This document shows, piece after piece, positions 7,716 to 20,000 of a stretch of DNA of 20,000 nt. The translations under genes were made by a program, and so were the position numbers. The stretch's first letter is position 1, and each line of letters opens with the position of its first letter. The notes under the pieces were generated by a model. That model was given only the letters and a program-made list of their open reading frames with translations. It did no database searches and was not told where the DNA came from. The DNA comes from Vermamoeba vermiformis (lineage: Eukaryota), in the NCBI GenBank assembly GCA_045837725.1, contig JBEWZL010000127.1, positions 295,231 to 315,230 of the forward strand. Reading direction: 5' to 3'.

Positions 7716-10700
7716 CTACACGGTCCAAACCGAACCAGATCTCGCTAATGGTGGCAATGCGGTGTGCTGCTCTAACTTGATTGGGCAACCCGAAATTGGA
7801 TAGCGCTGAGAGGATGACGGAACGCTAAGTGATATTACGGCGTAGAACGTTCCAGGTGATCCTTCTGGAATGAACGTGAAGACTCCAAACGACTCGTTGG
7901 TCAAACCTGCGCAAATTTTAAGTAAGTCTTGCTGATCATAATTGCACGCGCACTTACTCAATTCAATGCGTTGCGAGTAGAGTATGTCGGCTGACTTCAG
8001 AACTTCTCCGCCAGTGAGGTAGACCACGCCGAATTTCTTTGTGACTTTTGGGGTGACGATGTCGAGCTGTAGACTCACGTTGTTGAGCAATACTTGCTGG
8101 CGAATGATCTCTCTAGTTCTCACGACTGAAAGTCTCGAATTGATGGTAAACCCGTAACGACCATTCCAGGACACGTTGCAGTAGAAAACTGGTACGAATA
8201 TTAGATTGAACCTGTTTGGCAACGGACTTACGTTTTGCCAGCAGCATCTTCGCTGTGTCGTGAAGCTTCTGATCGTTATCTTGGATGTACTTGAGGGTGT
8301 CCATCTCGAGCTGGCTCATGTCCTGGGTCGCCGAATCCAACGAGACACTGTAAGTCATGGGAGGATCAAATCTAGTGTAATACACAGTCGACTCAGGCAG
8401 GTGATGCTGCATGTCCAGCTCTTGATGCGTGCATTCGGAAGTGTTTGTGATTTCCGCAAATTTGTTGATCCATTCGAACATCGATTCGGGACTCTGACTT
8501 GGTTTCACTGCAGGTTTGATTCCTCCGCCTAGCGACATCAAAATGTCGGGATCAGTTGCCCAAATGCGCTTTGCCTCTTCCATGCCGATGTTTGCAGGAT
8601 TGTTGGTAATGACGCCTCCGTCTACGAACTTCAGTTGTCCAACGCCTTTGACCGCGCGAAGGTAAGTGGGTATCGCCGAAGTAGCAGTGGCTGCGAAATA
8701 CAATTGCGTGTTAACGACGTACATTGTATTCGCATCGTTGCTGCATGGGGTGTAAGAGCAGAAGAGAACTCGTTTGTTTCGTGAAGTCTCCACTGACAGG
8801 ACGGCGACCTTCGGATTGTCGCGAACTGCTCCAATTTCTAAAAGAGTCTTCGGAGGCAACTGTCCTTTGACCGCTTTGGTCAGTTTTGTCATGGAGTACT
8901 TGGGACCTCCGAACGCTGATTTGACACTTCGTTTCCAAAACACCAGTTTGACGATATCGTTATAGTAGGCCTTGCAAAGTGACAGATTGACACCGGAAGA
9001 TAGCGATAATGCGACCAATCCTCCGCTGCCCGTGCCTATCACATAGTCGAACAACTCCGTGACACTAGACGAGGCAAGTTAATAAGTATATATCATAATG
9101 AATCAAGACTTACCGAGCACAGGTCAGCTTTTCAATGTGCTGAAGAATGATGATTGGCACAAGTCCTCTGTGTTCCGCACCGTCCAGCGAAAGAACACGG
9201 GGCGCAGCACCTTTTGGCACCTTGGATGCATCGTCTGCAGGTTTGAGTAAGTCAATATTACGTTATTCATAGAGCTATCCTTACCGAGATAAGTCACTGT
9301 CTTTCCGTCGAACGGGCAAACGATTTCGTTGGCTGAGTGTGAGCATTTCCTGCAGAACATGTGTCCGCAGCTGTACATCGCCCCAAGGCCCATAGGTGAG
9401 AAGCAGAAAGCGCAATACTTCGCGCAGAATTCATACTCATTGTTGCGTGGCCAGCTTTGGACGAACTCGGCGCGTTCTTGCTGCAACTTCTCAGCAGATA
9501 ACTGAGGTACGGGTAAGTAAATCTGGGACGTTATAGTACTTCTCTACTTGCCGAAATCAAGTGATCGATCTTGTCTCTGAACAATTGCTCAAGAGTGACT
9601 GAGTCATCCGACGCTGTGATCTCTTGGCTGCCACCGAAAAGATTTTTGAAGACGGAGGCGATGTTGATGAGTCCTTTGCGAAGAGGGTTTTGAAAGTTGT
9701 GCGACGAATGAACGATTCTCTCTTGCATGCAACAGCCGTTCTTGTCATGCTCTTCACAGGGTTGGAGTTGGTTGACGATAGTGAGCAATGGTTTCAAGTA
9801 ACCATCTCGTAGAAGTTGGTCGATGTTCTCGCCCTTATGAATACATAATGTTAGTGCTGTCAAGCTGAGTGCTGCAGGTACCTTTTGAAGACTAGATACG
9901 CCAAGATTCTCTTTCAATGAATTGATGTAAGCGAAGCAGTAGGCCGTTACTGCAAGCTCGCGCGCCTTTGCGAATCGTTCCGTTCTACTCTTCACGTATT
10001 CAGGTATTGTGAGGCCAGCAGGCTTGGGCAAAAGAGCCAGCGTTTCTTTAAAGAACTTAATTCTAACATTGTTTGTCAGTTTTTGTTCAATGGTTGATGT
10101 ATTTGCGACTTACACTGCCTTGAAACGCGAGTCCTTTTTGGGCAAGTTGACGTCGAAGAAGATCTCCGAAATATTGACCTCTTGCTGAGAGTTGACGATT
10201 TGCAGGACTCTTTCCGCTACACGGTACCACATATAGTCAGTGAACATATTGGCGACATTAAGCGTGTAGCTAACTTTCTCGACGCGCATCCGCTGAATTT
10301 CTCGATGAACAATTCCCTAACGGTAGTTGGTCAGAAAGTGGTAATTATTCATTTGGTTACCTTTAATTGCTTCAGCTGTTCGCAGTATTGAGTTGGGAAG
10401 ATTCGACCGTCCGGAATCTTTATAAAGCAAAAACCGGAAAAACTGTTGCGAAGCAGATCTTTCACGTCGTGACCGTCAGACTCCAAACTGCGCAGGAACA
10501 GACTCGTGCTGTTCTCAACATCGTATGGGTCTTCGCCAGTATCTGTACGTTCTGAGGGTGGGTTGCAGAAGTTTTGAACCACGATGAGGTATGGCAAATT
10601 TCGCGATTGCTGATTGGCCACACTACGCATCGTAAACTGTTCGATTCTAGCGATGTATTCTCTGTTTGCCAAGGCCTGGCGATTGGTGAATATAATGACA

Positions 10701-11725
10701 TTGCTGAGAATGTAGAACAGTTGTGGAAAGGTCTTTGAAACGTAGTCTGTGCGATTTTTAGTGAACGCATCCAGTTGTTCAGGCTTGAAGATCGCCGAGA
10801 GCTTATGCTTTAGTGCTTTGAAGAACTTCAATGGAATACGACCGTCGGCGCCTTCTCCGTCCAAGAGCACCACTCGTTCGTTGTTAACGTTGCCAACATA
10901 CTGATTGATATTGCCGGTCGTTGGATGTTCTTGCGAGGGTAAAGCAGTCGAAGGGCCCCTAACGAGCGTCAGTGCCATTCAATTTAAGAAATTGATTGCT
11001 TTTACCTTTGCTTGATGATTCGCTCTTCGAACTCCATCATTTCTCTCGCCAAATGACTTTTACCGCACTGGGTGGGTCCTACAAACGAGACGCGTGGCAG
11101 ATACTTGTTTCGGTCTGCAAGTCGTTTAAATTCTTGCCAGTTAGCGTCATTCTTATCAAGGCAAAAGGTAGTCTTATCTTCAGGTATTTGCGGAACGCAG
11201 ATCAACTCTGATTTCTGCGGCGGATAATTAAAATTTTAAATTTCGCTGCGATTCACGAATGACACTTACATCCTCGAGTTCATTTTCTTCGGTTTCTTTG
11301 CTGAACACTTGTGTGGTTCGTTTTAACTCTTCTATCCAAGACCATACTTCTTTGCGTTGCTTTAATTTCATTCCCATTTCGTCGCGCAAGTCATCGTTTG
11401 TCATACGCAGTAATCCCGCCCCGTTAATCCCCATCTTTTCGAATGAGGAAATTAATTCTTTGTCTTGCGTCTTCGTCTTCAGCCAGTTGCTGACGTCTTC
11501 TTTTGTCCACAGGTGTGCTGGCCGGGACGTGTTTCGTCGTTGCTGCAATTCCATTAGCAACTCGATCTTGGCTTGAGGAACATCGAGCTCTTGAAGGTCG
11601 CTTTTGGTCAGTTTGAGAAGTTCGTCCAAGGTAGTTATCTCGTTGTCGATAAACTTCTGTTTGTCAAGGCGGAAATACTCCATCACCACGTTGTACGTTA
11701 GGTAAGCGTCGTCTAGCGGCTGCAT
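7716..11725 (-). CDS. Multidomain protein: 2x SAM - P-loop GTPase-like - RING-type zinc finger - patatin-like phospholipase fold - C-terminal domain; multi-exon
   Basis: SAM motifs (LDELLKLTKSDLQELDV; WTKEDVSNWL...INGAGLLRMTNDDLRDEMGM). Walker A VSFVGPTQCGKS, PTTGN, LLDGEG. Zinc finger CAFC...CGHMFCRKC...CPFD. Patatin blocks VLSLDGAEHRG, FDYVIGTGSGG, ATSAIPTY, FVDGGVITNNP, LMSLGGG. The separate ORFs in the track join via GT-AG introns. Confidence 0.85.
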
Positions 11726-11902
11726 TTCACTATATAGTAAACACAATATCGAGCTAGGTGGTTCTTGATGCAATTCGTTTATAAAAACAAACACAAAATG
11801 GTGCGCAGATTTTGTGTTTCACCGTGTCGGACTTTCACCGCAGCATAAATAATTTGGTTTGGCTCATAATTTTAATAGATTTTATCGTTAGAAACAGTCA
11901 CC
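11726..11902. promoter_or_regulatory. Short divergent (bidirectional) promoter region
   Basis: Only 177 bp between opposing ATGs (11725 minus, 11903 plus). Contains a duplicated TTTCACCG motif at about 11817-11840. Confidence 0.5.
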
Positions 11903-14117
11903 ATGAATCCCAACCCAATCGCAGGCGATGATGCCACTGAAGCGGCACGTAAAAGTGGGTGGATCGTGAAGCAAGGAGGAAACCCGAAGGATGCGTGGAA
12001 GAAGCGCTTTATGGTTCTTTGCGGGCCAAGTCTTCATTATTACTCTGACGCAGTAAGTTTAATTGTGTTTTATTGATAAACTTGAGCTGATCTTGTACGG
12101 TGCAAAGCCAAAAGGAGAGATACCGTATTTATCCGCGACTCATATCGAACCAGAAGACTCTCCGCAGTATAAAGGACGTCCATATTGTTTCCGAATAGCA
12201 ACGCCTGACAGAGTGTATCGAATCTCATGTGACTCGGCCGATGAAATGAATTCTTGGTTGAAATTGCTTCAGGACCGAAAACAAGCACACGACAAGCTTG
12301 AAGATGATAAAAGAAAGTCACTTGTGATGAAGGCAAAGCTAAAACGCCAGCTAACGGTAAGTGAAACTGATCGGGTTTTTCCGTCGCAGATCCTGAATTT
12401 TCTATTTTAGGACATGTATGACATTGTTATCGACATAGACAATCTCATCGATTTAGAAGAGGGATGGAAGATTTATTTCGCGCAACGACTTCTCAGCCGG
12501 ATCGAAGGCGCAGCTGTCATAAACAAGCCGCTCGATCCAGAAACAGTGAACAATTTGAGCTTGAGCACTACTAAAGTGGTTGTTTCCGTTCTTGGTCTGT
12601 TCAACAAGGGTAAAACGTTCTTGTTGAACAAGATCTGCAATGAGAACTTTGACAGTGGCTACAAAGTAACGACCCGCGGATTAAGCTTCAAAGAGCCATA
12701 CGATATGAACAATATCATCTTATTGGACACTGCAGGAACATCATCTCCATTACAAAGTAAGTAAATCCAAATTCAAGCAACTTTAACTAATGCAGCTCAG
12801 TCAAAAACCCGAAATCCACGTTAGCCGTGAAGAAATCCACCGAAGATTTCCTTCAAAAGATGTCGTTTCTCCTTTCTGATATCATCATTGTCGTCGTTAA
12901 TGAGCTCACTTGGCCCGATCAAGAGTACATGACTGCACTAGCTGAGCAAGTTCGTGAACGACCGAACGACGCAGTGGACAACAAAATTATCGTTGTGCAC
13001 AACTATAAGGATGCCGAGACAGTTGAGGATTATTTGATAATGAGACAGGTACGTACTTTTTAACTTGTCCGTTGACTGTTTACCAATGCTTCAATTAGAA
13101 ATTCTGCGTCAATTGTTTCGAGGGCTCGCAGCGTTTTACGGACGTGCAGCTAAGAACAGGCCGTGAACGCGCTGATTTCTTCTTGAGCAACGGTGGTGCT
13201 CTACAGCACGTCTTCCTTGCAAAAGAAGGGTCGCCCGCTGGGAACATGTACAACGAGAGAACTCTTGAGTTGATTCGAATGTGGATCAGAACGAGAAACA
13301 TCTCGTCATCACAGCCCCTTATCAGCAAATTCTGCACCTTGGCTGCGGCAGAGCTTCGCATTTACTTCTCAAAGATTAAATCACTCTACTTGGTATGCAT
13401 TACATTACCATCCTTGGATCGAACCATTATTCTAACTTGTTCAGGTACATACGCCAATCAATCCAAGACCCCAGTCAGTGCGTATTGCAGTGAAAAGGAT
13501 TAACACTAATGAAGGATGGGGTGATACGCCGACAAATTGGGAAGAAGAAACAGAATCTACTCCGTACAAGATTAAAGCTGTATCAATCAATGGGGATGAC
13601 TTAGGTTACATCCACAATCACATCACGTTTGAAGGTTTCCATCTTGCCCTGTCAAGCACCATCTTTCAACCAAAGGTAGGTATCAGTTCTTATGCATTAC
13701 TTCTACTAACACTTGCTGCAGTTTGATGTGATTGAGAGAGATGACCATTTCATTGTTGCTGTTGAGTGTCCTGGAATTGAGCGTGAAGTCAAATTGGTAG
13801 ACCTTCGTCAACTCACAGAGGACACTACTTCATCATGGATTGGAGCAACGGTTGGTTTGATCAAGAATGTGCGTCATCTTATCATTCAAGGTCATAAGTC
13901 TCTTTCATTTCCAAGTCCCAACAATGCCACTGATATTCCTTACCGCTTGCAACCCAGTGAAGAGGTAAAACGGAGGCAGCTGCCCAGTGGCTCATTTACT
14001 CAAGCATATCCTCTGCCAGTTTATTATAAGTCAGAAATCACAAAAACAGTTCTGAAAGGTGGACAGTTTTTCATTTTCATTCAAAAAGACAATCATCTAG
14101 TTAATCACAATAATTAA
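11903..14117 (+). CDS. PH domain - P-loop GTPase (GBP/TRAFAC-like) - Hsp20/alpha-crystallin-like C-terminal domain protein; multi-exon
   Basis: Exon 1 MNPNP...KSGWIVKQGG..KDAWKKRFMVL...LHYY, then PKGEI...YCFRIATPDRVYRISCDSADEMNSW (PH). G1 VSVLGLFNKGKT, G2 TTRG, G3 LLDTAG, IIVVHN. C-terminal PKFDVIE..DHFIVAVECPG...LIIQGHK...GSFTQAYPLP (Hsp20-like). TAA ends at 14117. Confidence 0.85.
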
Positions 14118-14239
14118 AATAAACAATGTTTCTTTCTGTTTATTGGGGTACCCAGCAAAAAAGAAATCAGAAATTTATATATTATATAGGATTTAGGGCT
14201 GGGGCTAGGATTTTTGTTAACAAAAAAAAAATCACCATG

Positions 14240-14447
14240 CATACACTTTGGTGTACGCCCCGTACGGCAAGCTGTATGCCCCTCACACCCCCGTACAGCA
14301 CGCTGTACACCCTTCACACTACTGTACACTTTGGTGTACGTCCCTTTCGCACCCATACACTTCAGTGTACGCCACTTTGCATCAGTGTACACTTCAGTGT
14401 ACACCCCCATACAGCACACTGTACACCCCCTCGCACCCCCTGTACAG
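14240..14447. repeat. Low-complexity degenerate repeat built on TGTACAC/GTGTAC/CATACAC motifs
   Basis: About a dozen GTAC-core motifs. TACACTTTGGTGTACG occurs twice, TACACTTCAGTGTAC twice and TACAGCACRCTGTACACCC twice; each is an imperfect palindrome. Confidence 0.85.
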
Positions 14448-14449
14448 AT

Positions 14450-15975
14450 AGGGTGATGATGGTATCAATGTTGGTTAACTGGTATATGGATGCTTTAAGT
14501 CTACAGAAGCATGATATCTGATCCTGCTTCTTTTCCGCATCTTTCAGATTGGCGGTATCCTGATAATAGAGAATGAAGTGATTTAATTGTTAATGTTATC
14601 AATGTCAGTTAACAGTTAACGAATGCTTTAAATGAATTGATGCATGACAATCAATCCTGCATCATATCCACATCCGCATCTTCCAGATTGGCGGCATGCT
14701 TGATAGTGAGAATTGATATGATTTGAATGTGATATCAATCACAGTTTATTGCTGGTGGATTCCAAGTAAGAGTGATGAATCTGATGTGATTCTAATTACA
14801 TTTCCGCTCTATTCAATGCGGTATGCTAATAGTGAAGATCATTGTGTTCAAATGCATTCTAATTTCACTTCCGCTCTATTTGATGCGGCTTGCTAATGAA
14901 GGGAATTGATGTTTTACATGAATGTCTGATGTGGATATATGTTTGAGTGACGAATGTATTGAATCTAATAATGTCGTTTCAAATCACAAGCGGATTAGTT
15001 TATCATATTCAATCAACAAATATACTTCCGCTTTCATCAAATGCAGCTTCCCACGTACACATTAGTTGTTTTGATTCAATCGTTGTTTGTTTTGATTCTG
15101 AGCGGCTTCCAAATAATGTATTTGATTGTAATAGTGTCAATTCATCAAGTGGATTGATGTAGTCATATGTTATTTCCATTTTGGTAAGCGGCTTCCAAGA
15201 GTAATGAGAAAGGAGAGTGAAATTTCATTGTTAAAGTGGATAGATGCTAGTTAATTGGTAAATGAATGCTTTGAGAATATTGAAGCATGATGTCTATCCC
15301 TGCTTCATATCATATCCGCATCATGAATGATGGGCGGCACCCAATAGATGAGAAATGAATGAATGAGTTGAATGTTGATGGTATCAATGCAAATAGATTG
15401 GTATAGTAATCAATGCAATTTCACAGCTAATTAATGCTTTTAGTCTACAGAAGCACGATATCTAATCTTGCCTCATTTCCGCTTTCATTCTGAAATGCGG
15501 CACACAGATAATGAGAATGGTGGATTGAATCTAATGATTCTGTTCTGAATGTTAGGTGGATTCCAAATAATGAGAATAGATAGATGATCAATGTAAGTTC
15601 AATGGTAACGAGTGCTTTAAATCTACTGATGCATGATATCAATTCCTGCATCATTTCCGCACCAAGAATGATTGGCGGTATCCTGATAATGAGATTCATA
15701 TGGTTTTGTAATGATTTGATTCCTGATGTTAGGCGGTATCCAATGATAGAGATCATGAATCAATTCCAATGAAGTTATTCTCAATGTTAGGTGGTATCCA
15801 GATATACAGTGGTGATAGTGAATTCTCAATGTTTTCTGTTTGATGATAGGTGGTACCCTATAATGGAGTGTTAAGTGTAATATCATGCGTATTGATTGTT
15901 AAGTGGATTCCAATGAAGAGAATTGAGTGTAAAATCATTCATTTATTCTCTGATGTTAAGCGGTATCCAGATAAA
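14450..15975. repeat. AT-rich degenerate satellite-like module with recurring paired inverted repeats
   Basis: Five copies of an approximately 85-bp unit (ATGCTTT...GAWGCA-N13-TGCWTC...CCGC-N13/14-GCGG...GATAATGAGA) near 14490, 14622, 15265, 15433 and 15611, plus a shorter TGTTARGYGGWWTCCA motif recurring about every 57 bp in 15720-15970. Confidence 0.8.
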
Positions 15976-16086
15976 GGGTTAGGGGCAGATTCCCTGGCGA
16001 ACGAAGTGAGCCAATGGGGGGTTTAGGGGGGCTTGCCCCCCTAATAATGATAAGAATCACCATATTATATGGCTGTACATGCATAT

Positions 16087-16108
16087 TAATATAGCTTTAG
16101 GGTTTGGG
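16087..16108 (+). repeat. 22-bp direct repeat, left copy (TAATATAGCTTTAGGGTTTGGG); candidate attL
   Basis: Identical to 19403-19424 by direct comparison. Confidence 0.9.
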
Positions 16109-17325
16109 CTTATGCTTCGCTTTTCAGGCCCCTGGATCTCTGACGAAATTTCACCGAAATTTCCGGGAGTTGTTCCATGCAGCGAGGGCCGAAGGCCCGA
16201 GCGCATGGCACCAAGTCCCATTACATTTGGTGATAGTGATGCAGAGATACAGGGGCTCGAAGTAGCTGCGGCGCCAGCGTCGTAATGCCGCAATGCCGCA
16301 GGCAAATCACCGTTCCCGACACTTTTCGGTTAATTCTAGCTCTGAGTCACGGACACTCCCAGACCTCTCCTTTGCAGGGTAGTCTAGTCTATATTTTAGA
16401 TGATTTATCATATAAAATTTATTAATATTGCTGAAAGTTCGAATTTTTCGAAAAATGAAGGGACTTGGCCACGAATTTTTGATTTTTTCGAATTTACACT
16501 TATCTTTCACTGCAACACCACAGACAAGATATTTTAATCATTTGGTTATATAAGGTATTATAATTTCTTAGTATAGTGTTCACTTGCTTGTAAATTTTAA
16601 AATTACTGAAAATTAAGTTCGAACCCATGCATATTTTTAAAAATCCTTATTGTTTTTAATTTTTTAAAGTTTTTTGTCTAAGTCTTTTTTAGCATCATGG
16701 CCTTGGGGTTAGGGATCAGGTGACCAGATCCCGAGCCGTAGATCTCGCTTTCGCTCGCGATTTGAATCGCAATTGTTGCAGGTAATAATAGGCAATAGTA
16801 ATGTCAATCAGTTTTCTAATATGTTTTACTAGCAGGGTACACGGGCGAGCGGAGCGAGCCCGTGCAAAGCGCGATGTCAGAAATTCCATTCTGACATTCT
16901 GACACGATGTCAGAAACTGGTCGCGCTGTATTTACGCCTCGCGATCATTAGCAACAACACAGGTAAGTAGTATATTATTATAATTGTTATTATTAATCAC
17001 TACTAACTGTTATTTTGTTAGTATTAGCAGTGCGAAGTCGAATCTTGCTCGCGATTTTCAGATCGACCCCGGAATCAATTCGAAATCACTTGTAAGTAAC
17101 ATATTAATTTATTTAAAGCGTATTTGCTCACAACTAATGTATTTTTGAGTAGGAATTAATTTGGAATTGCTCGAATCTGCCGTAATTTATTTAAATTTCA
17201 AATTTTAAAGTCCCGATCAACAGGTAAGTTAATATATCAATATAAACATTCATATATTAATTGTTTTTAGTAGATTTAATCTCTTTATCACGCGAGTTTG
17301 CCGAATAAATTTCGGTTGGTTACAA

Positions 17326-19405
17326 ATGCGTAAGTTCAATTCAAACACGCGTGTTTCGCTCTTTATTAATGCACTTGACTAGAATTTAACTGCGATCAAT
17401 GCTCTAAGAGCTACAAGAAGATTGGCGATCTCAATCGCCACGTGAAGGACTGTCATGTTGATGAATCCTCGCGGACATGTCCTTCGTGCTCAAAGATTTT
17501 CGCATCTGTGCGTGCAAAAGATGAACATGTGGCGAATGTATGTCCTGCTGACCGTGCAAAATTGTGGACACCAACAAAACAAATAAATGATAGTCAAAAC
17601 GAGCAGCAGCGCCACAAACAATCAAAGAATGAGCTGTCTGCACAGTCAGTTCAAATAATCACAATGTTCAGAGAGTATTTGGCTGCTGGCAGTTCTTCCA
17701 CGTTTATGTTGTCGCGTGGTAAACGCAACTTGTCTCAGTCAAGTGTCGACACTTACACTCACCACCTGCGTGACTTCTTAGATTTCTTTGACGTATGTAA
17801 TTACAATTATTGTTGTTATAGAAACTAATTTTGCCTAGAAATCTGAAACAGAAGGTGAGGACTCCATCAAGTACTTTCTTGACTTGCGTGTCCTCAAAGA
17901 TTACTTATCGTACCAAGAAAAGAGCAAGTACACCAAAAAGACAATCTTGAATCGATTGTTTTCATTAGAGCGTCTTTGTGGATTCATCGAAGAAAAGCTG
18001 GTTGTGCTAAATAACGAAGGCTTCACCACGCTTCCTGTCAATAAGCGTACACGCAATACAGTACAATCAGTGTTCGAATGGATTGGGGCTCAAATACAAG
18101 TTCTAAGTCCAGAAGCAGCTGAGGAGACACGAATCCGCAACTCGAAGGAAGTTATGGAAAAAGAAAATCGTTGGATCACTGCCAAGCAAATCTTTGCCAA
18201 AGAGCTTGAACTCAAGCCAGAAATTGACTTGATAATGGAGCGTATTAGCAAGACCAATGTGCAGTAAGTTATCTTTTTGTCGGAGAGAAAGCATACTGAT
18301 TCTAATTGATAGGCCCTCTATTCATGAATTGAACCTTGTTCAAGACTATATCATGTTCTTGTTGCTCATTCAGCGCCCCACAATGCGCACTCAGAACTTG
18401 AGCTTGAAAATACTCGATAAAGTGCAGACAGCCAAAGAAGCCAAAGAAAATTGTATTGTTTTGACAGATACTGAAGTCATCGTTCAGTACAATCAATACA
18501 AGACTGTAAAGTAAGATCGTGCTTGGTCATATTGTTGAAAACTAATAATGCGATTTAGAACTTATGGATTTCAAACTGCTTACTTGCCGAAAGACCTTGC
18601 TCAATACTTAAGAACCTTTGTTAAATCCATTCGACCATGGTTTTACAAGAACAAAGAGAAGCAAACAGTTGGGTCATTCTTATTTTTAAACAAGAACGCA
18701 GAAGAGCTGAAAACTATTGGCTCTCGCTTCAAATCAATTATGCAGAAGTATTTTAATAGCAATGCTTCTGTAAGCTCTATTCGCAAGGCAATGGAGACTG
18801 CAATTGCTGCTAGTTCACTGCCAGAAGACCAAAAGCGCAGTCTGTCATTGGCAATGTTGCATGACCCCGTTACTGCTGAACGATATTATGTAATGAAGGA
18901 CAGTGTTGAAGAAAGCCAGCAGATTAACAGGCAATGGGCAATATTTCGACAAGCTCTACTGACTCAAGTCCAATCTCCAGCAACAATTGTTAGTAATAAT
19001 GCAATTGCTTCAACCAACAATAATGCAACAGAAGTGCTCCAACCTGCTTGCAATCATCTTGAATTGATTCCAACTTCAACATTGTCGAGTCCATCAAAAC
19101 TCAGAGTCTCTGACCCTCAAGCTGATGCAGTGCCAAGTCTTGCTTCTTCAGTGTGCAACTCAGCTGAAGAAAGTGAAGAAGAACAAAATGAAACGACTCG
19201 GCAGCTCGCTGACAATATTGCGCAAAAGCTTGTACATCCTACGCCAAGTCCAATGCTTAGTCCAAGCAAGTTTCCTTTAAGGCCTGGAGATTGGCCTTGC
19301 TCTTTTTGTGGGTACACCAACTTTGCTTACCGTGGAGTTTGTAATCGCTGTGGCAAAGCCAAGAACAAAAGAAGTGTTTATGAAGAAAGTGAACAACAGC
19401 ACTAA
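17326..19405 (+). CDS. Tyrosine recombinase/integrase with N-terminal C2H2 and C2HC zinc fingers and a C-terminal RanBP2-type zinc finger; 5 coding exons
   Basis: Exons 17326-17329, 17383-17792, 17839-18263, 18313-18510 and 18559-19405 splice in frame. MQFNCDQCSKSYKKIGDLNRHVKDCH (C2H2); CPSCSKIF...EHVANVC; LSQSSVDTYTHHLRDFLDF (integrase core-binding domain); RPTMRTQN (Arg I); YKTVKTYG (Lys); FLFLN; SSIRK (Arg II); MLHDPVTAERYY (His, Tyr); RPGDWPCSFCGYTNFAYRGVCNRCG (RanBP2). Confidence 0.88.
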
Positions 19406-19424
19406 TATAGCTTTAGGGTTTGGG
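19403..19424 (+). repeat. 22-bp direct repeat, right copy; overlaps the recombinase stop codon; candidate attR
   Basis: TAATATAGCTTTAGGGTTTGGG, whose first TAA is the stop codon of the recombinase gene. Confidence 0.9.
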
Positions 19425-19501
19425 GGTGAGAGGGTTAAAAATAAAATATTGTAAAAAGTAGCTACAAAGTTTCTATAGCTGTTTTTTTAATGTCATATGA
19501 T

Positions 19502-19986
19502 AGGCGTACGAAAATCGTACGCTCTCTTTAACCAGTCCAAGATAGGCGTACGAAAGTCGGACGGTCTCTTTAACCACGCGCAGACAGGCGTACGAAAATC
19601 GTACGCTCTCTTTAACCAGTCCAAGATAGGCGTACGAAAGTCGGACGGTCTCTTTAACCACACGCAGACAGGCGTACGAAAATCGGACGGTCTCTTTAGC
19701 CCTTCAAGATAGGCGTACGAAAATCGGACGCTCTCTTTCACCAGTCCAAGACAGGCGTACGAAAGTCGGACGGTCTGTGTACCCAGTCCAAGTACGCGTA
19801 CGAAAATCGGACAGGCTCTTTAACCAGTCCAAGCTAGGCGTACGAAAATCGGACGGTCTCTTTAAACAGTCCAAGATAGGCGTACGAAAGTCGGACGGTC
19901 TCTTTAACCACACGCAGACAGGCGTACGAAAATCGGACGGTCTCTTTCACCAGTCCAAGACAGGCGTACGAAAATCGGACGGTCTA
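19502..19986 (+). repeat. Tandem array of 12 copies of an approximately 42-bp unit (AGGCGTACGAAARTCGKACGSTCTCTTTAACCAGTCCAAGAY)
   Basis: Unit starts at 19502, 19544, 19586, 19628, 19670, 19711, 19753, 19794, 19836, 19878, 19920 and 19962 (last one truncated). Confidence 0.95.
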
Positions 19987-20000
19987 TTTAGGGTTAGGGT
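19987..20000 (+). repeat. TTAGGG telomere-type repeat start (TTTAGGGTTAGGGT)
   Basis: Two TTAGGG units at the window end, G-rich strand pointing outward and following a tandem array. Too short to prove a chromosome end. Confidence 0.55.

Follow-up and report, generated by a model that had tools for sequence, protein, structure and literature searches.

A spliced tyrosine recombinase gene on a left-anchored chromosome-end element, and a possible DNA route to telomere capping

The window, meaning the whole 20,000-nucleotide stretch analysed here, is the last 20 kb of contig C127; it includes the final base of the contig and has TTAGGG repeats at its end. It contains a real gene, a spliced tyrosine recombinase (YR) gene under selection. 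This gene lies on an element, Z, that has a left end fixed at 1.5-2.5 TTAGGG units, unrelated upstream flanks that include cut host genes and sister modules, and ragged right ends, and at least three more YR families behave alike in subtelomeres. We interpret Z as a roughly 3-kb, intron-rich, YR-only, Crypton-like DNA element of chromosome ends that caps telomeres, a reading to which we assign a probability of about 0.5. Its significance rests on the telomeric multi-family system more than on the list of domains, and the architecture alone is a moderate curiosity.

Gene structure and predicted protein

The coding part of the gene is laid out as follows.

17326..17329, + strand: coding part of the first coding exon (start codon plus one nucleotide), followed by a phase-1 intron at the same alignment column in ZB and L082
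17383..17792, + strand: coding exon 2, with C2H2 finger, C2HC finger and start of the core-binding domain (Pfam, alignment)
17391-17456, + strand: C2H2 finger (Pfam, exon 2)
17478-17543, + strand: C2HC finger (Pfam, exon 2)
17839..18263, + strand: coding exon 3, with core-binding (SAM-like) domain and start of the catalytic domain (Phage_int_SAM_1 match of relatives, fold)
18313..18510, + strand: coding exon 4, with Arg-I R305 (18386), N308 at the Glu/Asp-I position (18395) and catalytic Lys K343 (18500) (family rows)
18559..19405, + strand: coding exon 5, whose catalytic part holds S418 at the His-II position (18773), Arg-II R421 (18782), H447 (18860) and Y456 (18887), and whose remainder is a Ser/Pro linker, a RanBP2 finger (19286-19351) and a stop codon supplied by module W

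Joined, the five coding exons give 627 codons with zero internal stops. With donors held fixed, two acceptor combinations are open, and the chosen one scores 475 rather than 473 bits against an intronless relative. Introns occupy the same columns, within one, and have equal phases in the paralog ZB (contig C235, locus L033, 43% identical) and in the metagenome relative L082, and intronless proteins such as P0055 align over the splice junctions (42% over 636 columns). Comparison of ZB with L082 points to purifying selection on the YR gene, with dN/dS of about 0.1 in exon 2 and dN of 0.10 against dS of 1.52 in the catalytic domain.

The four spliceosomal introns of the preliminary description are retained as coding introns, but the total is probably about eight, given up to four more in the 5' UTR.

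16782..17273, + strand: 5' UTR with introns at 16782-16835, 16963-about 17021/17030, 17092-17152 and 17224-17273

One of these, 17092-17152, is seen as a GT..AG joint, 17091>17153, in X6, a spliced contig set from which six introns of a host control gene are likewise removed; the other three are predicted from donor, branch and acceptor signals. In the rows listed, none of the four coding introns is crossed by an RNA contig or read. Of the 232 reads from the raw RNA run X21, 220 match at 90-95% identity, and coverage of the host control gene is minimal, so that this run does not come from the same strain and is silent on expression level. Two further details of the gene model were half right: the first exon does contribute four coding bases, but these most likely belong to a longer exon that follows the 5'-UTR introns, and the first finger is present but does not need splicing to become visible, as it already lies in the open frame 17379-17828. 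What splicing provides is the sole start codon upstream of both fingers.

A two-sequence profile recovered 52 relatives of this protein among 1.84 billion representatives. Fold comparison, which the preliminary description had asked for, bears out a YR fold on relatives: in AlphaFold models of P0062 (pLDDT 88.5) and P0055, standing in for the window's own spliced protein at 42-52% identity, the core-binding and catalytic domains match Cre, XerH, IntI and lambda Int. Foldseek gives an E-value of 5e-4 against Cre, and VIA-align gives Z-scores of 13.8 for Brujita integrase, 13.3 for Cre (rmsd 3.8 over 269 residues) and 13-14 for XerH and IntI. The strongest structural matches are uncharacterised giant-virus proteins (BFVD, E 6e-8 to 6e-7, TM 0.47-0.62), with a virophage protein lower, and the ESM Atlas neighbours include Preplasmiviricota clusters at 0.94. 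By sequence, Phage_int_SAM_1 is found in relatives (E 1e-5, above cut-off); Pfam, PHROGs and PDB sequence searches left the catalytic domain unrecognised in the window protein, and relatives alone gave weak integrase matches. A word-index protein search with exon 5 confirmed 0 of 213 candidates among longer proteins, which is weak evidence, none of 49 stretches in viral contigs was confirmed as a relative, and no relative was matched in phages. The GCR1_C and DUF3504 domains, which the preliminary description named for described Cryptons, have no Pfam match in the window exons or in 34 relatives, and structural Z-scores for Ndc10 and QRICH1 reach only 6-8 against 13 for Cre. The protelomerase TelA scores 6.2, far under Cre, and the fold gives no support to hairpin telomeres; that idea had come from AT-rich ends with 6-bp palindromes. 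A DIRS YR of the same genome goes unrecognised by the family profile (E 0.36).

The catalytic candidates R305, K343, R421, H447 and Y456 are conserved family-wide, with SSIRK at the expected HxxR. We counted residues over 50 relatives, having dropped P0038 and P0048 (8 matched stretches each, unaligned) from the 52, and assigned positions by sequence rather than by model coordinates. Among the rows that reach each position, Arg-I is kept in 17/17, Lys in 18/19, Arg-II in 43/45, His-III in 48/48 and Tyr in 46/47. The box had been singled out as non-canonical, yet within this family it is normal: the His-II position is mostly Gly, Ser or Thr and is His in 0/45 rows. At the Glu/Asp-I position, 15 of 17 aligned rows have Asn and none has an acidic residue. 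A DIRS YR from the same genome carries a canonical HSLR. The sections of PMC2943603 used here report that His-II is present in 87% of YRs, that all but five substitutions of Cre H289 leave activity, that Asn is among the best substitutions of Cre E176, and that topoisomerase IB is without both the His-II and the Glu/Asp-I residues. Because no row has His and Cre tolerates substitution at His-II, SSIRK is both normal and compatible with activity, and because both residues are missing, the active site is predicted to be topoisomerase-IB-like, R-K-R-H-Y. The notable point of the box is the loss of both YR-specific residues. The same sections propose that His-II and Glu/Asp-I were added onto a topoisomerase-like ancestor, a proposal made testable by a natural YR family that lacks both.

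The N-terminal fingers match Pfam families at E 8e-6 to 9e-5, with zf-C2H2_jaz alone passing its cut-off, and the RanBP2 finger matches PF00641 with E 1e-5 and 25.1 bits, under the cut-off of 27 that the paralog's finger passes at 30.3 bits. The order C2H2, C2HC, YR and RanBP2 was first taken as unusual and turns out to be a family trait (52 matches) rather than peculiar to this copy. Of the 63 proteins examined, 27 have a RanBP2 pattern. The finger is terminal in 11 of these; in 14 close relatives a tail of 55-66 residues comes after it, and the remaining two are a protein that is cut short and a protein with two fingers. Nor is the finger terminal in the intact gene, which runs on where the window copy is cut at 19402: P0008, near-identical to the window protein, and an RNA-type contig in X6 extend beyond this position, as does X1. 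Module W contributes its first three bases as the stop codon, and the window copy is therefore without a 47-aa tail. This tail forms three strands and a helix at high pLDDT in a relative's model, has no match in Pfam or the PDB, and scores 0.81 in the Atlas; its score against the chromodomain of module X was reached by 1 of 60 shuffles. The aromatics of a chromodomain cage appear to be absent from it. The lost tail is possibly chromo-like, on what is weak evidence.

The proposed kinship of the RanBP2 finger with the RNA-binding ZRANB2/RBM10/FUS class holds up, the best PDB sequence matches being ZNF265 (E 6e-5), RBM10, ZRANB2 F2 and FUS. The finger fits W-x-C-x2-C-x3-N-x6-C-x2-C and keeps the Asp, the last Asn, one Arg and the aromatic residue used for stacking; in this clade Tyr takes the place of the first uracil-reading Asn, and an aromatic residue that of the first Arg. 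Two Asn read the third base, uracil, in RanBP2-type fingers according to the part of PMC6384913 drawn on here, and this pair maps by spacing to Y598 and N608. Since one Asn of the pair is replaced by Tyr, the predicted specificity is more likely GGN than strict GGU; telomeric RNA, ssDNA and splice donors of the element itself are candidate ligands. The RanBP2 region (window 19283-19396 against L033) is 88% identical in DNA between Z and ZB, with the remainder saturated. Its dS of 0.75, against saturation elsewhere, suggests a recent swap of the 3' end between the two.

Element Z and the subtelomeric modules

Z is flanked on both sides by other modules, and the window ends as follows.

15979..16092, + strand: stub of module X, 114 bp; the long copy on C205 encodes an inward-reading YR with chromodomain
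16087..16108, + strand: 22-mer that forms the left end of module Y; 12 genome copies, 10 on other contigs
16097..16702, + strand: module Y, non-coding here; 8 copies of 67-606 bp with common left end and varied right ends
16706..19402, + strand: YR element Z, with fixed left end shared among copies and right side cut at 19402, where intact copies run on
16706..16714, + strand: telomere-like seed GGGTTAGGG at the left end of Z
16726..16745, no strand: inverted repeat AGATC-N10-GATCT, a candidate recombinase binding site; similar repeats in ZB and Q
16840..16864, no strand: conserved hairpin just past the first putative 5'-UTR acceptor; 93% identical in the paralog (L026)
19403..19987, + strand: module W, which truncates the gene, starts with the 22-mer and has a 42-bp tandem array (19499-19990); left end common to 10 copies
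19988..20000, + strand: start of the telomeric repeat at the contig end

The left end of Z falls on the same base in three other assembly copies (L002 twice, L003), each with an unrelated upstream flank, and recurs in an independent DNA run (X4 record 14). Both the paralog ZB (L033:6709) and the metagenome relative (L082:120) begin with GGTTAGGG after unrelated coding-like sequence, and the start of ZB interrupts a host reading frame. Inverted repeats at the equivalent place have 7-bp arms in ZB and 9-bp arms in Q and are not clear in L082. A hairpin related to that at 16840-16864 is present in L082. Z, ZB and L082 each carry a single gene between left end and 3' UTR, with an element size of about 2.9 kb, and none of the three contains an RT-RNase H. 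The assembly holds two near-full copies of Z, two stubs and one paralog. Of the two copies that retain most of the gene, each is either cut or stops at a contig edge; the flanks vary among copies and strains, and the assembly has neither an intact right end of Z nor a second copy of the paralog's 3' tail. Contig depth along Z drops from 111 through 109 and 51 to 32 (X1). At L034:6491 (C276), a telomere seed cuts a leucine-rich-repeat-like host frame and is followed by a 240-bp module and two tandem Z copies.

The preliminary description had referred to a telomere-like att site. We rejected the 22-bp repeat flanking the locus both as an att site of Z and as a target duplication, as it has 12 genome copies and is the left end of other modules, namely W and Y.

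We surveyed modules in 30 end regions, chosen because they contain such modules, and found shared left ends with differing right ends for 10 copies of W, 8 of Y, 8 of T, 4 of X and 4 of Z. Taking the nearer contig end as a proxy for the chromosome end (many contig ends examined are without a telomere array), the 22-mer points to that end in 12/12 cases and the T motif in 9/9, together 21/21; one T copy lies 211 kb from the contig end toward which it points. All 33 of 33 internal telomere-like tracts are 9-26 nt long. Read by eye, 21 junction rows have short shared sequence of up to about 8 nt and no common target. Similarity between target and incoming end past the junction was found in two cases and not across the 21 rows. 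In several module families (T, U) the ends are AT-rich and without a telomere seed, and the left ends are still fixed. The C16 and C59 copies, with apparently complete right ends, grade via degenerate repeats into telomere.

Modules T, X and Q encode related YRs with His-less boxes. The family profile recognises T (E 2e-14) and X (E 2.5e-7), and its match to Q is weak (0.006-0.05), with the motifs present. Module X, at L111:3051-5261 (- strand, C205) and also at L117 (C163) and L116 (C59), encodes a YR with a C-terminal chromodomain (PDB matches to Oxpecker at E 0.003, LHP1 and Rhino); the C59 copy is internally deleted with both ends, and C163 has an apparent head-to-tail pair. The YR of module T has one intron and a chromo-like stretch near the N-terminus (L104:369-2334, - strand, C85; also C300, C46 and C203), and a related T-type end follows or cuts YR relatives in L080-L082. 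Module Q, at L108:3961-7412 (C231) and L140 (C16), encodes a multi-intron YR in which the His-III position is not His, together with a chromo-like stretch and a C-terminal beta domain as in P0043 and P0049. Gene direction is inward in X and outward in Z, T and Q, with the same end polarity.

This arrangement bears on RT-based mobility, against which the preliminary description had cited the introns. Mobility at the DNA level stands, with no RT in the element and no Penelope-type RT seen, but introns alone are insufficient because an antisense template would retain them; a common end polarity of neighbouring YR modules whose genes run in opposite directions is the stronger argument. Across 54 loci, which cover most of 55 PF00078 matches (a few without motif), no Penelope-type RT was recognised, though an intron-split RT could escape this search. 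We take the RT motifs at those loci to be Gypsy-, LINE- or DIRS-type. Near the ends, no hammerhead or other Rfam family was found, the two matches being at chance level. TERT is present in the genome.

Several other features of these regions are recorded here in their own right. Six-bp palindromes begin several module ends, and module X on C59 contains a perfect 16-bp palindrome (L116:8309-8324), the left part of which is the start of the W-type 22-mer. Within the window, a further module at 14177-15975 has an AT-rich and telomere-like left end, 31-bp repeats and degenerate 58-178-bp repeats, and occurs also on C76 and C252. An inward ORF (L112:5599-6120, - strand, and the matching C56 region) is common to sequence downstream of Y (C217) and of W (C56). 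An inward 224-aa ORF in the module array at L098 (C137) presumably resembles a 2-oxoglutarate/Fe(II) dioxygenase (HxD...H...R). At L080:1-2150 an integrase-core-like (rve) frame lies directly 5' of a 5'-truncated YR relative. Loci L066-L073 hold several three-ORF DIRS/Ngaro-like retroelements with canonical HxxR YRs, and many Gypsy and LINE RTs. By eye, host genes further inward in the window are a PH-domain and GTPase-like gene at 12063-14117 (+ strand; spliced in X6, high contig depth in X1) and patatin-like, RING, GTPase-like and SAM frames at 7716-11818 (- strand).

A capping model and its alternatives

Under the capping model, the enzyme would bind close to the left end and nick via Y456 in its topoisomerase-IB-like R-K-R-H-Y site. 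At a chromosome end that has just broken or been healed, the left end would then be joined to a short telomere seed or to microhomology, and the distal part of the donor, out to its own telomere, would substitute for the lost tip. The exchange could be one-sided and completed by replication, or could proceed through a circle closed across flanking telomere repeats, and later arrivals would truncate earlier ones, as W did to Z. Such an element would make a single precise cut at its inner end and use the telomere as its outer end. The two N-terminal fingers would probably aid DNA recognition, the RanBP2 finger would probably bind GGN in single-stranded RNA, either transcripts of the telomere or splice donors of the element itself, and the lost tail may serve for contact with chromatin. 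Only tentatively do we extend this to a virus-type YR superfamily with a topoisomerase-IB-like site that drives one-ended elements capping broken chromosome ends, its RanBP2 and chromo readers guiding the enzyme to telomeric RNA or chromatin; this wider claim is doubtful. Several points count against capping. No activity, circle junction or empty site has been observed, and a classical YR reaction requires two similar sites, yet the targets have no consensus in common. The low copy number, the lack of an intact Z right end, the seedless T and U ends and the T copy 211 kb inward also weigh on this side, and host break-induced replication could yield the same junctions without the enzyme.

This last point opens onto a passive origin, in which telomerase heals breaks, break-induced replication or ALT-like copying of whole distal segments proceeds from internal TTAGGG seeds, as for yeast Y' elements, and the YR is active but has another role, such as circle excision or dimer resolution. 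The presence of TERT, the similar spread of non-coding modules, the apparent swap of the RanBP2 region between Z and ZB, and the short microhomologies and extra T bases at seeds, which resemble direct healing, would all fit. We consider such hitch-hiking rather unlikely, as it leaves unexplained why modules carry four or more distinct YR families, which are under selection wherever this was tested, and why the seedless modules T and U have fixed left ends. The case for a domesticated host telomere-maintenance gene, spread merely within subtelomeric duplications, would draw on conserved introns, purifying selection, expression in the spliced data set and low copy number; against this, both larger Z copies are cut or at a contig edge, flanks vary by copy and strain, and the paralog ZB breaks into a host reading frame, all of which makes domestication highly improbable.

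Z could instead be an ordinary target-specific Crypton, similar to CryptonV, that excises as a circle, integrates into TTAGGG tracts with short direct repeats and is later eroded to ragged ends. Some CryptonV families target microsatellites (PMC8869645, in part), many relatives lie on contigs whose length, about 2.0-3.3 kb, is that of an element with a single gene, and Q on C231 has GGTTAGGG at both sides. The right boundary of that Q copy was, however, cut by incoming Z, since the C16 copy continues, and the 22-bp repeat that flanks the locus is part of other modules. Long internal tracts would moreover be expected after integration into long arrays, whereas 33/33 are 26 nt or less, and after no element is a resumed target flank seen; we judge this account quite unlikely. 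We give less credence still to a process in which RNAs that end in reverse-complement telomere repeats are reverse-transcribed onto chromosome ends, with the YR as antisense-copied cargo that keeps its introns. Fixed inner ends, truncated outer ends and head-to-tail arrays do fit the description of Terminons (PMC6431247, in part), but the ends have no hammerhead or other Rfam family nearby beyond the two chance-level matches, none of the RT motifs at the 54 loci is Penelope-like (a few loci have no motif), and X reads inward and Z, T and Q outward with equal end polarity.

Significance and comparison with known systems

In the literature cited here, as far as the portions used extend, telomere-specialised mobile elements are retroelements. 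Through RT-less YR families with polar chromosome-end arrays, end healing and subtelomere turnover would gain a DNA-based route, and giant-virus or virophage recombinases would be connected with intron-bearing nuclear transposons. We found no published description of this architecture or system, and no publication that joins a tyrosine recombinase, a RanBP2 finger and a transposon, in searches whose scope lay outside Repbase Reports and most subscription papers. The comparisons below draw on parts of the cited sources.

The fingers of ZRANB2, FUS and RBM10 (PMC6384913) differ from that of Z, which is single, fused to a recombinase and has Tyr for the first uracil-reading Asn; the FUS finger shares with it an aromatic first Arg position. 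With Cryptons (CryptonF/S/A/I; Kojima and Jurka 2011, PMC3212892, as there described in part) Z shares a YR as sole enzyme and the lack of an RT and of terminal inverted or long direct repeats. Z differs from them in lacking GCR1_C/DUF3504 and in adding zinc fingers, a RanBP2 finger and polar stacking at chromosome ends. Cryptons also carry 4-6-bp direct repeats at their termini, whereas for Z only the left end is known and no pairing is seen. CryptonV, which we know by description only (PMC8869645), is like Z in being YR-only and associated with simple repeats; Z differs in its seeds of 1.5-2.5 telomere units at one end only.

The best structural matches of the Z family are YRs of giant viruses, virophages and Polinton-like viruses (e.g. 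OLV11-like, PMC4642659). In contrast to these viral systems, Z has spliceosomal introns and no viral genes: with neighbouring ORFs read by eye, no capsid or packaging gene lies beside the YR, which is the one gene in about 2.9 kb. The TATE elements of Leishmania (PMC6681497) likewise encode a YR and form tandem clusters at telomeric hexamers; the passages at hand class them with DIRS-type YR retroelements and place them at one position within the repeat array, whereas Z has no RT, has introns and is joined to non-telomeric broken ends. Terminons, or Athena elements (PMC6431247), resemble Z in that the inner end is fixed and bears a short telomere complement, the outer ends are truncated and copies are arrayed head to tail; they differ in being RT-driven and in carrying hammerhead ribozymes, neither of which was found for Z. 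One-ended capping, if true, would be a DNA-based counterpart of HeT-A/TART and Terminons.
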